In this document: positions 5,944-40,043 of the stretch, piece by piece
Layout: every line of letters begins with the position of its first letter
Numbering within the stretch: position 1 is the stretch's first letter
Origin: a phage
DNA: 44,111 nucleotides
Sequence record: PZ379076.1
Reading direction: 5' to 3' (one strand)
Translations under genes and position numbers: made by a program
The notes under the pieces: model-generated
What the model was told of the DNA's origin: nothing
Databases searched by the model: none
What the model saw: only the letters and a program-made list of their open reading frames with translations

Positions 5944-5966
5944 AGCCCCGAAAGGGGCTTTCTTAT
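5944..5966 (+). terminator. stem-loop / weak terminator after portal
   Basis: agcccc (5944-5949) gaaa ggggct (5954-5959) followed by TTCTTAT. Confidence 0.4.
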
Positions 5967-7046: not shown

Positions 7047-7507
7047 TGATGGGCTTTTTCAAAGTAACTGACGTACCGTCTCGTCGCGTAGTCCAGTACG
7101 CCCGCGTGTCTGGCTCTGGCGAGAACGTGGTATTTATTGAGGACGAAAGTGTACTCGGTACACCGGTAGATGATATGCCGTTTGCAGATAAAACCGGTAT
7201 TGCGTTGCCCGCCGCTGGTATGCTTTATGAAATTCCGTATCTGGCGGACGCTGGTGACGTGTATTTCTCTGTGCAACCGAAAGACACTGAACTTACAGAT
7301 GGCAGCGCAACTATCACTGTCGAAGTTAAGGCGGGTAAAGCACCGTATGCTCTGACCTGGTACAAAGACGGTAAGGAAGTGGTAAACGCCCCGGAAGAGG
7401 CCTTGTCTCTGACGGTTAATGCAGTTGGTGAATACTTCGTTAAAGTTACCGATGCCGGTGGCGTAGAGGCCGTCAGTAAAGCGGCGAAGGTCGCTAAACC
7501 AGAATGA
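7046..7507 (+). CDS. Ig-like domain protein (possible capsid decoration)
   Basis: 153 aa; ...ALTWYKDGKEV...VKVTDAGG segment resembles bacterial Ig-like domains. Confidence 0.55.
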   Translation: MMGFFKVTDVPSRRVVQYARVSGSGENVVFIEDESVLGTPVDDMPFADKTGIALPAAGMLYEIPYLADAGDVYFSVQPKDTELTDGSATITVEVKAGKAPYALTWYKDGKEVVNAPEEALSLTVNAVGEYFVKVTDAGGVEAVSKAAKVAKPE

Positions 7508-7510
7508 TAA

Positions 7511-7537
7511 AAGGCCCCATTAAGGGGCCTTAGTTTT
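7511..7537. terminator. bidirectional rho-independent terminator
   Basis: Stem aaggcccc (7511-7518) / ggggcctt (7524-7531); T-run follows on plus strand and A-run precedes it (T-run on minus). Confidence 0.75.
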
Positions 7538-7740
7538 CAACGGAATCTTGTGTTTAAATCCTGCTCGTGGACGACCCTCAGAACAGTGTCATAATCCCCG
7601 TATCTTCCAGGTTCAAATATATCTAATGCCCTGTAAGCAGACATTGCGTCAGGGAAAACCTGCAGAACCTTTTTAACACGGCACAAGTCACCGTCGAACT
7701 CTTCATCGAACTCTTGAACTACTTCGCAAATTGCATACAT
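7537..7740 (-). CDS. hypothetical protein (lone minus-strand gene in the head region)
   Basis: 67-aa ORF in track; AGGAGG SD 6 nt before ATG; own promoter upstream and terminator downstream. Confidence 0.6.
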   Translation of the reverse strand: MYAICEVVQEFDEEFDGDLCRVKKVLQVFPDAMSAYRALDIFEPGRYGDYDTVLRVVHEQDLNTRFR

Positions 7741-7767
7741 TTTTCACCTCCTGCTTAAGTTAACTGA

Positions 7768-7796
7768 ATAGTACCCTATTATATTGGGGTGTGCAA
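7768..7796 (-). promoter_or_regulatory. promoter, TTGCAC-N17-TACTAT family
   Basis: Minus strand reads TTGCAC (7796-7791), 17-nt spacer with AATAG-N4-CTATT palindrome, TACTAT (7773-7768). Confidence 0.5.
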
Positions 7797-7862
7797 ACTA
7801 TTTATTTAATTATTCCAGTTATTCCGCTCAATTGTAAATGTTGGAATAAACTATTCGAATAG

Positions 7863-7891
7863 TTGACTTTTCACTAAAAATATGATAAGCT
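7863..7891 (+). promoter_or_regulatory. promoter of conserved element copy 1
   Basis: TTGACT (7863-7868), 17-nt spacer, TAAGCT (7886-7891); same arrangement at 39678-39706. Confidence 0.45.
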
Positions 7892-8000
7892 CCACCTGAG
7901 CTTGTGAAGTATGAACAAGCGACCGCGGCGCGGGCAGGTAACGGAGCGGGACGTAAGTCCTGAGTGTAGTTACGCTGACGCGTTCGGAAGGGCCATACTC
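7886..8000 (+). repeat. conserved ~115-nt element, copy 1 (candidate structured RNA or leader)
   Basis: First 43 nt identical to 39701-39743, then matching with two offsetting 1-nt indels through ...TTCGGAAGGGCCATA(C/A)TCTATTG; GCTTGT/ACAAGC stem 7900-7920. Confidence 0.85.
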
Positions 8001-8070
8001 TATTGCTTGTGTAAAAAGTAACGGGTTTACTGAGATTACGCCGTTTCTATGTTTAAATGATAAGGACTAG

Positions 8071-8099
8071 CGCCCCGCTTTAAGGCGGGGCTTTACTTA
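8071..8099 (+). terminator. hairpin plus U-rich tract (terminator or attenuator) before Rz
   Basis: Stem gccccgc (8072-8078) / gcggggc (8085-8091), then TTTACTTA; Rz ATG at 8116. Confidence 0.4.
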
Positions 8100-8115
8100 T
8101 CGAGAAAGGAGAAAC

Positions 8116-8502
8116 ATGAATCTTAAAGCAACCGTCGTAGCAGGAGCATGTTTCATCATCCTGGCTTACACACACGGCATTTATCAGTACCGCAGCGGCT
8201 GGCACGAAGGCCGCGCTAATCTCGTTTCGCAGCAACAGCAAAAAGCACAGGCTGAGTTAGCTAAGAAAACACAACGGCAGCAGCAGGACGAATCTAAGGC
8301 CGCCGCCGCCGATTCCAAAGGCAAGACGAAATCAGAGGTGATTACCCGTGAAGTCGTTAAGTACATTAAAACGCCTGGTCGCAGCGGGTGCGCTTTTGAC
8401 CCTGAGCGCGTGCAGCTCAAGTCCCGCGCCGTCGCAAACGCTAATTCCATTACCGGATACGACGATGATGCAGCCTCCGTGCAAACTGGCAGCGCCAAGT
8501 AG
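8116..8502 (+). CDS. Rz-like inner-membrane spanin
   Basis: 128 aa; N-terminal hydrophobic helix, Q/K-rich coiled-coil-like middle, and an overlapping lipoprotein gene in another frame. Confidence 0.65.
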   Translation: MNLKATVVAGACFIILAYTHGIYQYRSGWHEGRANLVSQQQQKAQAELAKKTQRQQQDESKAAAADSKGKTKSEVITREVVKYIKTPGRSGCAFDPERVQLKSRAVANANSITGYDDDAASVQTGSAK

Positions 8503-10447: not shown

Positions 10448-10463
10448 GGTTAAGATATAATCG

Positions 10464-10491
10464 AGAGGGACTTCGGTCCCTCTTTTCATTT
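10464..10491 (+). terminator. rho-independent terminator after the capsid gene
   Basis: Stem agagggac (10464-10471) / gtccctct (10476-10483), loop ttcg, then TTTCATTT. Confidence 0.7.
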
Positions 10492-17279: not shown

Positions 17280-17321
17280 AACATAACTCCTGATTTGAGA
17301 TAACATCGTTGGTGTAAGTGA

Positions 17322-17350
17322 ATAGTACGCTATTATATCAGGGTGTGCAA
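17322..17350 (-). promoter_or_regulatory. promoter, TTGCAC-N17-TACTAT family (drives the minus-strand cassette)
   Basis: TTGCAC (17350-17345), 17-nt spacer with AATAG-N4-CTATT, TACTAT (17327-17322) on minus strand. Confidence 0.5.
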
Positions 17351-17457
17351 GTAGTATGTTAGAATAATTTTGCGCCTAGTGTCGCACACGAAAAGCGGGT
17401 GGTTCCCGTCTGGCGCATTTCCTTTAACCAGTAACCTCTTAACCAAAGGATTAAAGA

Positions 17458-29734: not shown

Positions 29735-30019
29735 CTAACTATAATAGTTCGCTATTAGGGTGTCAACCTGTTTGAACGAACCAACTACAAAAACATTTGC
29801 ACCACGCTTACGCATCCGCTCGTGCTCTCGTAACTGGTGCGGGTCAGGCTTCGTGCTTTCGTCTTTCTTCACCTCGACGAACCAGACGATGCCGCCAGGG
29901 AGAATTACCAGCAGGTCGGGAGCGCCGGAACGCCCCTCGTAGGAAAGTTTACGAACGAGGCCCCCAAGGGCCTCAAATCGCTCTTTTGCGTATTTCTGGA
30001 TGCGGCCCTCTTTAGTCAT
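29735..30019 (-). CDS. VRR-NUC-like PD-(D/E)xK nuclease
   Basis: ATG 30019 inside track ORF 29735-30199; ...GAPDLLVILPGGIVWFVEVKKDES...QLREHERM fits the D...E-V-K nuclease core. Confidence 0.55.
   Translation of the reverse strand: MTKEGRIQKYAKERFEALGGLVRKLSYEGRSGAPDLLVILPGGIVWFVEVKKDESTKPDPHQLREHERMRKRGANVFVVGSFKQVDTLIANYYS
29738..29766 (-). promoter_or_regulatory. strong sigma70-type promoter, TTGACA-N17-TATAGT family
   Basis: Minus strand TTGACA (29766-29761), 17-nt spacer with AATAG-N4-CTATT, TATAGT (29743-29738). Confidence 0.65.
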
Positions 30020-33293: not shown

Positions 33294-33322
33294 ACTATAA
33301 TAGCTAACTATTCAGGTGTCAA
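33294..33322 (-). promoter_or_regulatory. strong sigma70-type promoter, TTGACA-N17-TATAGT family
   Basis: Minus strand TTGACA (33322-33317), 17-nt spacer with AATAG-N4-CTATT, TATAGT (33299-33294). Confidence 0.65.
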
Positions 33323-36099: not shown

Positions 36100-36128
36100 A
36101 CTATAATAGCGAACTATTCACATGTCAA
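36100..36128 (-). promoter_or_regulatory. strong sigma70-type promoter, TTGACA-N17-TATAGT family
   Basis: Minus strand TTGACA (36128-36123), 17-nt spacer with AATAG-N4-CTATT, TATAGT (36105-36100). Confidence 0.65.
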
Positions 36129-39180: not shown

Positions 39181-39391
39181 ACTTAACGCCCGCAATCCAC
39201 GCACGCTCCGAAGCGTAGAAACGACACTTACTTAAAGCCTCGATTGGCATCTTAATAATGCGTGTCGGTTCCAACAAATGATTAGGCTTACATATTTCCG
39301 CATAGAATCCGCTGTCAGTAATTTCCGACGCAAACTTAAACCAGTATTTAACTTTACAGTTTTCAAAGTAACAACCCATACGCCCAATCAT
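39179..39391 (-). CDS. hypothetical protein
   Basis: 70-aa ORF in track, ATGA-coupled to the upstream HTH gene. Confidence 0.5.
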   Translation of the reverse strand: MIGRMGCYFENCKVKYWFKFASEITDSGFYAEICKPNHLLEPTRIIKMPIEALSKCRFYASERAWIAGVK

Positions 39392-39570
39392 TTCACGTTC
39401 TCCTTAATCCATGCTTCAACTTTATTACGGTCAAATGTTCCTGGTAAACGGCGACCCATAACCTTAATACAGCAATCAGGGAATTTACCGCTGCGCAACC
39501 AGTTATTAATTGTTTGACGTGTCACCCCGATACGTTCAGCCACTTCATTCTGTGTCATGTAATGCTGCAT
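39388..39570 (-). CDS. AlpA / excisionase-like HTH DNA-binding protein
   Basis: ATG 39570 with AGGAGA SD inside track ORF 39388-39642; MTQNEVAERIGVTRQTINNWLRSGKFP ... VEAWI matches the AlpA-type pattern. Confidence 0.6.
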   Translation of the reverse strand: MQHYMTQNEVAERIGVTRQTINNWLRSGKFPDCCIKVMGRRLPGTFDRNKVEAWIKENVK

Positions 39571-39677
39571 TTTTATATCTCCTGTTTGTTTGGTGAAAAC
39601 GAGTATAGGATAGCGTGAATGTAAAAGCAACCAAAACACCACACAAAGTTACTAATATACAAAAGATGCTAATGGTA

Positions 39678-39706
39678 TTGACTTTTACTAAGAAATGTGC
39701 TAAGCT
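39678..39706 (+). promoter_or_regulatory. promoter of conserved element copy 2
   Basis: TTGACT (39678-39683), 17-nt spacer, TAAGCT (39701-39706). Confidence 0.45.
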
Positions 39707-39815
39707 CCACCTGAGCTTGTGAAGTATGAACAAGCGACCGCGGTGCGGCAGGAAACGGAGCGGTGCGTCAGCACTGAGTGTAGTGTCGCTGCCTGCATTC
39801 GGAAGGGCCATAATC
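39701..39815 (+). repeat. conserved ~115-nt element, copy 2
   Basis: Matches 7886-8000; stem-loop GGUGC-gtca-GCACU at 39762-39775 replaces GGGAC-gtaa-GUCCU of copy 1. Confidence 0.85.
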
Positions 39816-39907
39816 TATTGTAAATCCCGTCTAAATAACCCAAGTCACTAATAATTAAAAGTTTCTATAGTTGCCGTAAGCAAGGTAGAGAGTACTTCAC
39901 TCCGCTG

Positions 39908-39927
39908 GGGTGGGCTAAAGCCCACCC
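39908..39927 (+). other. GC-rich hairpin downstream of copy 2
   Basis: gggtgggc (39908-39915) taaa gcccaccc (39920-39927); weak T-rich tract ~13 nt later. Confidence 0.4.
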
Positions 39928-39986
39928 GCTGCGTTGCGTACTCTTTAAAGAAACAAAAGAATCACAACGGCAACGTAACTATTATC

Positions 39987-40015
39987 TTGCACACCCCAAC
40001 ATAATAGGATACTAT
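39987..40015 (+). promoter_or_regulatory. promoter, TTGCAC-N17-TACTAT family
   Basis: TTGCAC (39987-39992), 17-nt spacer with AATAG-N4-CTATT, TACTAT (40010-40015); acgagacagaggag leader before ATG. Confidence 0.5.
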
Positions 40016-40043
40016 TCACTTATCGGAACGAGACAGAGGAGTG

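Follow-up and report, generated by a model that had tools for sequence, protein, structure and literature searches.

A conserved promoter-proximal leader RNA confined to Guernseyvirinae bacteriophages

The 44,111-nucleotide phage sequence analysed here (record PZ379076.1; referred to, at its whole length, as the window) is the genome of a Kagunavirus, subfamily Guernseyvirinae, and carries in two of its intergenic regions a structured RNA that proves to be a promoter-proximal leader, conserved in this subfamily and confined to it. Comparative sequence analysis strongly supports the element as a real and new RNA family with a well-defined core. Its mode of action can be stated only tentatively: by analogy it may act in cis on transcription elongation, in the manner of the put RNAs of phage HK022 or the nut sites of λ, a reading to which we assign a probability of about 40%, divided roughly evenly between action of the RNA alone and action through a factor. 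The likely class of function, that of a promoter-proximal leader governing expression from long phage operons, is one already known; the RNA itself is new and unrelated to earlier ones.

The two copies lie on the plus strand, copy A as a unit at positions 7863-8005 and copy B at 39678-39820. Each begins with a promoter, TTGACT-N17-TAAGCT (7863-7891 and 39678-39706), runs through 43 consecutive nucleotides identical in both copies (43/43; 7886-7928 and 39701-39743), differs thereafter by two 1-nt insertions or deletions among other changes, and ends with the shared sequence TTCGGAAGGGCCATA(C/A)TCTATTG. All of this had been noted in a preliminary description of the window and is confirmed. What that description had missed is a TG one base 5' of the -10 hexamer in both copies (7883-7884; 39698-39699), which makes these extended -10 σ70 promoters, with the -35 element TTGACT at 7863-7868 and 39678-39683, a 17-nt spacer, and the -10 element TAAGCT at 7886-7891 and 39701-39706. 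The pattern, even when made degenerate, has two matches in the window against 0.01 expected. Judged by spacing, transcription is predicted to start at G7898/A7899 (copy A) and G39713/A39714 (copy B), 2 nt 5' of the first helix, and it is around this predicted start site that sequence conservation sets in. The structured RNA then extends over 7898-8005 (about 108 nt) and, in copy B, which belongs to the class termed B1 below, over 39713-39820. A covariance model detects exactly these two copies in the window, at 133 bits (7897-8004) and 118 bits (39712-39819), and no third one, the next best match scoring 8.8 bits.

The architecture is that of a 5' hairpin, P1, followed by a long irregular hairpin, P2-P3-P4, and then by a conserved single-stranded tail that starts with AAGGG; the minimum-energy fold of copy A is identical to the consensus. 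In copy A coordinates, P1 is the stem GCUUGU/ACAAGC (7900-7905/7915-7920), already recognized in the preliminary description, and is joined to P2 by the linker GA (7921-7922). In P2, CCG (7923-7925), a bulged C (7926) and GGNGC (7927-7931) are opposed to GCNUU-CGG (7980-7987), with tandem G.U pairs. P3 pairs CAG+GNAAC (7935-7942) with GUUNC (7969-7973) and CUG (7975-7977), G7974 being bulged between the latter two; it is separated by an internal loop (GGAG, 7943-7946; AGUGUA, 7963-7968) from P4 (7947-7952/7957-7962), a variable hairpin usually closed by a tetraloop, GUAA in copy A. The tail, AAGGG-N-UCUAUUG, runs from AAGGG at 7988-7992 through UCUAUUG at 7999-8005, its general form being AAGGG-N10-UAUUG. 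Copy B has P1, the base of P2 and the tail in common with copy A, and differs from it in P3b and P4 by compensatory changes: GGGAC-GTAA-GTCCT (7948-7961) in copy A corresponds to GGTGC-GTCA-GCACT (39762-39775) in copy B, exactly as had been described.

We tested this fold on 40 distinct sequences of the Kagunavirus type (K-type), which were taken from IMG/VR, metagenomes and GenBank phages and comprise classes A, A', B1, B1', B2, B3, B4, B5 and C. In a model-based alignment 96.0% of cells are occupied by standard pairs, against 31-43% when the partners are slid by 1-3 columns; seven pairs are changed on both sides, and none of 500 shuffles reaches the observed covariation score. A plain MAFFT alignment gives similar pairing numbers. 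One P2 pair is seen as C-G, U-A or A-U and one P3b pair as U-A, A-U or G-C, and covariation is seen at four of the six pairs of P4. For seven classes a representative was folded by itself, and each gave the common architecture as its minimum-energy structure, with a P3b that is weak in B3 and B4. Sequence conservation is concentrated at the P1/P2 junction, where the bulged C at the base of P2 is invariant and the tandem G.U near-invariant, and in the tail; P3 and P4 are kept as structure only. Three further candidates were set aside: a small 3' hairpin, P5 (AGGN/NUCU), which at 89% paired and with one covarying pair is too weak to claim; pseudoknots between the P1 loop and the tail, which the variation does not support; and a σ70 pause element in the P1 loop (AAGTAT), which is not kept in classes B2 and C.

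A more distant version of the element provides a second view of what is conserved. A partial BLAST match led to Salmonella phage SLMP1 and then to about 200 further Jerseyvirus records, including Jersey, SE2, SETP7, wksl3 and MB78, which bear a divergent form (J-type) at the equivalent locus, before the Rz spanin gene. Its promoter reads T(T/A)GACT-N14-TGT-TACGCT; its P1, UACGCU-UUC-AGCGUA, is of different sequence; P2 is conserved as CCG-C-GGUGC...GCAUU-CGG; P3 (GGUCGCG/CGCGACC) and P4 (GGGCG-loop-CGCCC) are new; and the tail is AAGGGYCGAGYUAUAUUGC. A covariance model made from K-type sequences only aligns the J-type copies, which it had not seen, over their full length at 26-41 bits (E 1e-5 to 1e-10). 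In the joint K- and J-type alignment 92.8% of cells are paired, against 28-40% when slid, and 16 of the 29 pairs change on both sides; in these figures the 3' strand of J-type P1 is paired by the model with the identical TACGCT of the -10 hexamer and not with the local copy, although it is the local P1 hairpin that a transcript from the J-type promoter contains. SLMP1 itself represents a natural deletion: it has lost P3 and P4 and closes P2 with GGAC, but keeps P1, P2 and the tail intact. Invariant across the types are a 6-bp P1 at the 5' end, a linker of 0-2 nt, CCG-C-GGNGC / GCNUU-CGG, AAGGG, and UAUUG placed 17-19 nt from the end of P2 and 10-12 nt after AAGGG (its UUG is CUG in the MB78 type); the internal-loop nucleotides AG / AGYGUA are likewise conserved across types. 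The pattern points to a macromolecule that would bind the P1/P2 junction, with P3/P4 serving as a dispensable arm. The original proposal of paralogous structured RNAs is thus borne out on each side: both copies and the other classes share one folded architecture, and the pairings, which correspond to no Rfam family, are preserved in related phages, down to the J-type.

Conservation of this kind could in principle be owed to a short basic peptide, MNKRPRRGQ..., or to the DNA itself, as an operator palindrome at the start site or as a replication origin, the RNA pairing being incidental; to such explanations we give almost no weight. Several records do annotate a 'hypothetical protein' over the element, in some of them as an open reading frame of 36 amino acids. 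However, the ATG, situated in the P1 loop, is missing in classes B2 and C and in the J-type; two copy-A variants, one with a 1-nt deletion (L024) and one with a 1-nt insertion (L026), shift the frame; the core lengths of 106-110, 97-98 and 56 nt differ by non-multiples of three; and most single substitutions would be non-synonymous. The peptide is rejected for these reasons, the annotation is spurious, and the earlier argument for selection at the level of RNA over that of peptide holds. The case for DNA is made by a palindrome, AAGCTC-N5-GAGCTT, over the start site, by the extreme conservation of the intergenic DNA, and by a minimum of cumulative GC skew at the B locus. The skew, however, tracks the direction of the genes, has no feature at copy A, the universal one, and is uninformative as to an origin; and the compensatory changes in P2, P3 and P4, together with a wholly replaced P1, are strand-specific signatures of RNA.

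The same palindrome belongs to an echo of the -10 hexamer in the 5' strand of P1 (7886-7903), where K-type TAAGCT is followed by TGAGCT(T). The J-type has an echo of its own, TACGCT-ACC-TACGCT (L232, about 385-415); echo and -10 hexamer change together between types. The echo could serve as a σ70 pause element or as an operator, or it could pair in an alternative way that inactivates the element when transcription reads through from upstream.

The family is found in roughly 400 Kagunavirus and Jerseyvirus phage genomes. Both element loci of the window match about 180 records of Guernseyvirinae phages: E. coli Kagunavirus, Salmonella Jerseyvirus, and phages of Raoultella and Shigella. Searches elsewhere were consistently negative. 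The element is absent from 5,426 complete E. coli genomes; the only match among plasmids is a mislabelled phage genome; 100,044 species genomes returned 24 chance matches and one misbinned phage contig; a metagenome scan returned many chance matches, every real one being Guernseyvirinae-like; and a search of IMG/VR with the core pattern recovered only known loci and no new lineage. Rfam 15 at gathering threshold recognizes a single RNA in the window, int-alpA, which lies elsewhere; scans of both loci at E up to 10 produced terminator-hairpin noise only, and those of the Jersey-type, minimal and Bas71 leaders at E up to 1 produced nothing. No description of the element was found in the literature on Kagunavirus, Guernseyvirinae, Jerseyvirus and MB78.

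Four database entries met in the course of these searches are likely errors. SHAK7858 (OR594183.1), a Kagunavirus, is filed as Autographiviridae/Kayfunavirus and named vB_EcoM; CP088689.1, an E. coli 'plasmid' of 44,086 bp, is a Kagunavirus genome; a contig bearing the element (L206) is labelled as a metagenome-assembled genome of Bacillota; and in phage celemicas an annotated tRNA-Ser overlies the terminator hairpin upstream of the element (L233, 248-325).

All Guernseyvirinae genomes that were examined have copy A, without exception at the head of the Rz-scaffold-capsid operon, and the promoter, conserved across all relatives, is always attached to the element. Copy B, present in 43-54 of about 183 K-type records (about a quarter), is an accessory duplicate, a promoter-plus-RNA module set before the other long rightward operon; phages Jersey and Bas71 have no second copy. 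The leader slot at the B locus is mosaic. In Bas71 it holds an extended -10 promoter, TGTATAAT, and then a long hairpin, GUUGACGAACCCUC...GAGGGAUUCGUCAAC (L203, 2370-2480), and in Jersey an unrelated leader (L248, 38860-39230), neither of which matches the element model (R1) or Rfam. Three loci (L015, L072, L091) combine A-type flanks with B-type cores, which shows exchange between the copies. Compared with Salmonella phage S100, the window is 93-99% identical in the A intergenic region (7780-8180) and 66-89% in the adjacent capsid-module genes; the high identity between genera extends over all 320 bp of that intergenic region, and the whole copy A transcript of about 200 nt, and not only its core, is 98-99% conserved across genera. 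Since J-type copies occur within the same genus, constraint and horizontal exchange of the module are probably both responsible for this conservation.

Downstream of the conserved end, after 67 nt in leader A and 88 nt in leader B, comes a GC hairpin, in both cases the tip of a longer stem-loop, which we term HP2. HP2 of leader A occupies 8059-8101 (fold z = -3.4), ending 15 nt before the Rz start codon, with outer pairs GAUAAG/CUUAUC and a GC tip at 8072-8091 which, with UUUACUUAU, is called terminator-like. That of leader B occupies 39886-39947 (fold z = -4.2), with its tip at 39908-39927 and the outer stem UAGAGAGUAC/GUACUCUUUA; it has no U tract, and the terminator scan made no call there. 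A boxA-like string at 39938-39949 turned out to be the 3' arm of this hairpin. J-type leaders carry a hairpin of different sequence, GCCCGGC/GCCGGGC or GCCCGAC/GUCGGGC with outer AUACG/CGUAU, again without a U tract and immediately before the ribosome-binding site. The downstream hairpin of the preliminary description therefore exists in both copies, its terminator-like U tract in copy A only, and across the family it is only K-type copy A and some B classes that have a terminator: HP2 is a conserved structure that is an intrinsic terminator in some contexts only. At copy B and at the Jersey-type loci, where the U tract is missing, the RNA thus appears to be a leader and not a terminated small RNA, and the discrete small RNA which promoter and hairpin together had implied becomes only one possibility among others.

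That possibility would be an abundant RNA of about 170-200 nt, freed at HP2 by termination or by RNase III, and acting in trans on a host or phage target or sequestering a protein. In its favour it has a strong promoter of its own, the terminator-like hairpin of copy A, the cross-genus conservation of the whole copy A transcript, the length of the HP2 stem, which is in the range cut by RNase III, and a second promoter at 39987-40018 from which genes downstream of leader B could be driven independently. But in copy B, as at the Jersey-type loci, HP2 is not followed by a U tract; at locus A the interval from HP2 to Rz holds no promoter; the A and B RNAs are unrelated in their 3' halves; the conserved residues are at a helix junction and not in an accessible seed; and an antisense search of the phage genome (host targets were not screened) found no match of at least 13 nt and nothing above chance. 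On this balance we hold such a small RNA to be unlikely.

The same features bear on a riboswitch-like role, in which a small molecule or ion sensed by the element would decide termination at HP2. A conserved structured 5' leader followed by a hairpin, with internal-loop nucleotides conserved across types, would suit this role, but scans of Rfam found no match, even with E up to 10 allowed; HP2 follows only after 50-90 nt, and its sequence in A is unrelated to that in B; inspection of minimum-energy folds, no systematic search having been made, reveals no pairing between element and HP2 that would compete; the conserved internal loop is missing from the minimal variant of SLMP1, which is viable; and the family is restricted to one lytic phage subfamily. 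The role appears quite improbable.

For the setting of the two leaders we relied on the annotation of phage vB_EcoM_SHAK7858, whose genome is near-identical to the window and 100% identical over copy B. It shows three rightward (+) operons with leftward replication and accessory genes between them. Copy B heads an operon of small genes, holins, endolysin, terminase, portal and head morphogenesis genes, extending from about 40.0 kb across the end of the sequence to 7.5 kb; copy A heads one of Rz, Rz1, scaffold, major capsid, connector and tail genes (8.1-14.9 kb, to about 14851), the first being the Rz-like spanin gene (8116-8502, plus strand; identified from the list of reading frames and the annotation of relatives); and the third consists of tail genes (17.5-27.4 kb). 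Strong intrinsic terminators are found inside the operons, after the portal gene (5944-5959) and after the capsid gene (10463-10484), and the operon upstream of copy A ends in a bidirectional terminator at 7511-7531. Since there is no promoter in the 24 nt that separate HP2 from Rz, nor any other strong forward promoter within 7507-8116, the capsid operon must be read from the copy A promoter through HP2.

It is an elongation role that fits best the extreme 5' position of the element, the long operons with their several terminators, the attached promoter, the conserved junction of two hairpins, the dispensable arm and the fixed distance to the tail. In the mechanism we propose, host σ70 RNA polymerase would start at the extended -10 promoter, and the first 100 nt or so of the transcript would fold into two adjacent hairpins, P1 lying 2 nt from the predicted 5' end. 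The folded 5' RNA would act in cis on the polymerase that made it, either alone, like HK022 put RNA, or by providing a site at which a phage or host factor assembles, like λ nut, and the polymerase would then pass the leader hairpin and the internal terminators of the operons, which are 7-12 kb long. The constant spacing of UAUUG may correspond to the point that the polymerase has reached when P2 is complete and emerges from it.

HK022 carries two paralogous put RNAs of about 70 nt and two hairpins behind its early promoters, PL and PR; put suppresses terminators in cis without any protein, and putL, which starts at +1 and binds the zinc-binding domain of β' via the junction of its two stems, does so at distances of at least 10 kb (PMC9378689). 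The Guernseyvirinae element resembles put in having two paralogous copies per genome, each behind a σ70 promoter that heads a long operon, in starting at or near +1 (as putL does), in its two adjacent stem-loops with a very short linker, and in the bulge low in the second stem and the conserved residues at the junction. It differs in being about 100 nt long, against about 70, and in occurring in virulent siphoviruses, where it heads late structural operons, whereas put heads early ones. Put apparently has no Rfam model, so that a scan with R1 was the only homology test possible; we located putL in the HK022 genome, and the model, run with filters off over the immunity region containing it, found nothing above 8.2 bits and nothing at put. 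The element may thus work like put without being a member of the put family. That it should be a second, independently evolved RNA which alone makes the RNA polymerase of E. coli and Salmonella terminator-resistant, on the late structural operons of virulent Guernseyvirinae, is a distinctly unlikely outcome, for which the minimal active core may amount to about 55 nt: P1, P2 with its bulged C and tandem G.U, and the AAGGG tail.

The factor-dependent form of elongation control has its model in the λ PL leader, in which nutL is followed by an RNase III hairpin and the N ribosome-binding site, two copies of nut serving two operons. The order in the window is comparable (promoter, RNA recognition element, long stem-loop, first ribosome-binding site), with two copies for two operons. 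Unlike nut, the element has no boxA or boxB consensus, and neither an N- or Q-like antiterminator nor a phage RNA polymerase is annotated in SHAK7858. The regulator gene adjoining copy B, divergent from it (39391-39573, minus strand), encodes a DNA-binding protein of 61 amino acids with an HTH_17 (excisionase/MerR-type) domain; it was dismissed as an AlpA-type antiterminator partner, matching HTH_17 only and not the AlpA family model, and is a candidate regulator of these promoters.

Structured leader RNAs with antitermination activity at the starts of long mobile-element operons include EAR and the conAn2 RNA of conjugative plasmids (PMC8191782). The element shares with these, and with the int-alpA RNA of Rfam, its place at the start of a long mobile-element operon, but its fold is unrelated to theirs, and they occur in Gram-positive bacteria or prophages. 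The int-alpA match in the window (RF02996; 17369-17433, plus strand), at 36.6 bits against a gathering score of 35.8, is immediately preceded by TGT-TAGAAT (about 17359-17367), an extended -10 promoter, and is closely followed by the tail operon (17458 onward). All three rightward operons thus open with a promoter-proximal structured RNA, of two different kinds. The literature searched contained nothing on the function of int-alpA.

A protein bound at the P1/P2 junction might leave elongation untouched and act instead as on a 5' untranslated region operator, setting the stability or translation of the mRNA and so the level or timing of Rz and capsid synthesis, with P1 also serving as a protective 5' hairpin. 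Compatible with such an operator are the closeness of P1 to the predicted 5' end (2 nt), the presence of a bulged C and a tandem G.U, typical of protein recognition, the conserved Shine-Dalgarno-like AAGGG with UUG 10-12 nt later, and the HTH_17 regulator gene next to copy B. We regard it as doubtful: the first start codon follows the element only after 110 nt (A) to 220 nt (B), a stretch that includes HP2; the duplicate heads a different set of genes; the spacing between the Shine-Dalgarno-like sequence and UUG is long, and the UUG is replaced in the MB78 type; and the mini-reading frames differ, being UUG-UAA in classes B1, B3 and B5, of four codons in A and of seven in the J-type.

Several observations weigh against a role in elongation. 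An RNA-seq study of the Guernseyvirinae phage vB_Eco_K1B4 mentions no intergenic or non-coding RNAs, and the element has no homology to put in sequence or structure. In most contexts the leader hairpin would terminate only weakly, if at all, so that antitermination may not be needed at that point, and internal terminators after capsid genes are common in phages without an antitermination system. The element is not required for the B operon, since many Kagunaviruses, such as Bas71, and Jersey have unrelated leaders at that locus. That the A intergenic region exceeds its flanking genes in identity may be due to exchange of the module, or to functions of the DNA, no less than to RNA function. Finally, an inverted repeat upstream of the copy A promoter suggests control of initiation by a DNA-binding protein.

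This repeat, TTATTCCA ... TGGAATAA (7810-7817 / 7842-7849), is accompanied by a direct TTATTCC (7819-7825) and lies between divergent promoters; Jersey-type loci keep it as TTATTCC...GGAATA. It looks like a candidate site for a dimeric regulator of the capsid-operon promoter. Another promoter-like sequence recurs beside the leaders: the 32-nt repeat TTGCACACCCCAAYATAATAGGRTACTATTCA (-35 TTGCAC, 17-nt spacer, TACTAT) has three copies in the window against 0 expected, at 7765-7796 and 17319-17350 on the minus strand and at 39987-40018 on the plus strand, each adjoining one of the three rightward-operon leaders. Those on the minus strand would each drive a small leftward gene; that at 39987-40018, which follows leader B as its second promoter-like element, would drive the first gene of the operon (about 40041). 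Phage Jersey has a related sequence, and the repeats are probably a phage-regulated class of promoter or operator. The replication module, for its part, has three identical near-consensus promoters on the leftward strand, TTGACA-17-TATAGT (36100-36128, 33294-33322 and 29738-29766, minus strand).

To our knowledge put is the only family of protein-independent antiterminator RNAs, and it is known from lambdoid phages only. The element is a directly testable candidate for a second such mechanism, in analogous position in about 400 genomes, and nature supplies a deletion series for experiments in its full, Jersey-type and minimal versions. The finding also explains the recurrent and spurious 'hypothetical protein' annotated over these loci. 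Guernseyvirinae phages are now in use for biocontrol and therapy of Salmonella and E. coli, and should the mechanism turn out to be a different one, the finding would still identify the region that controls their capsid operon.
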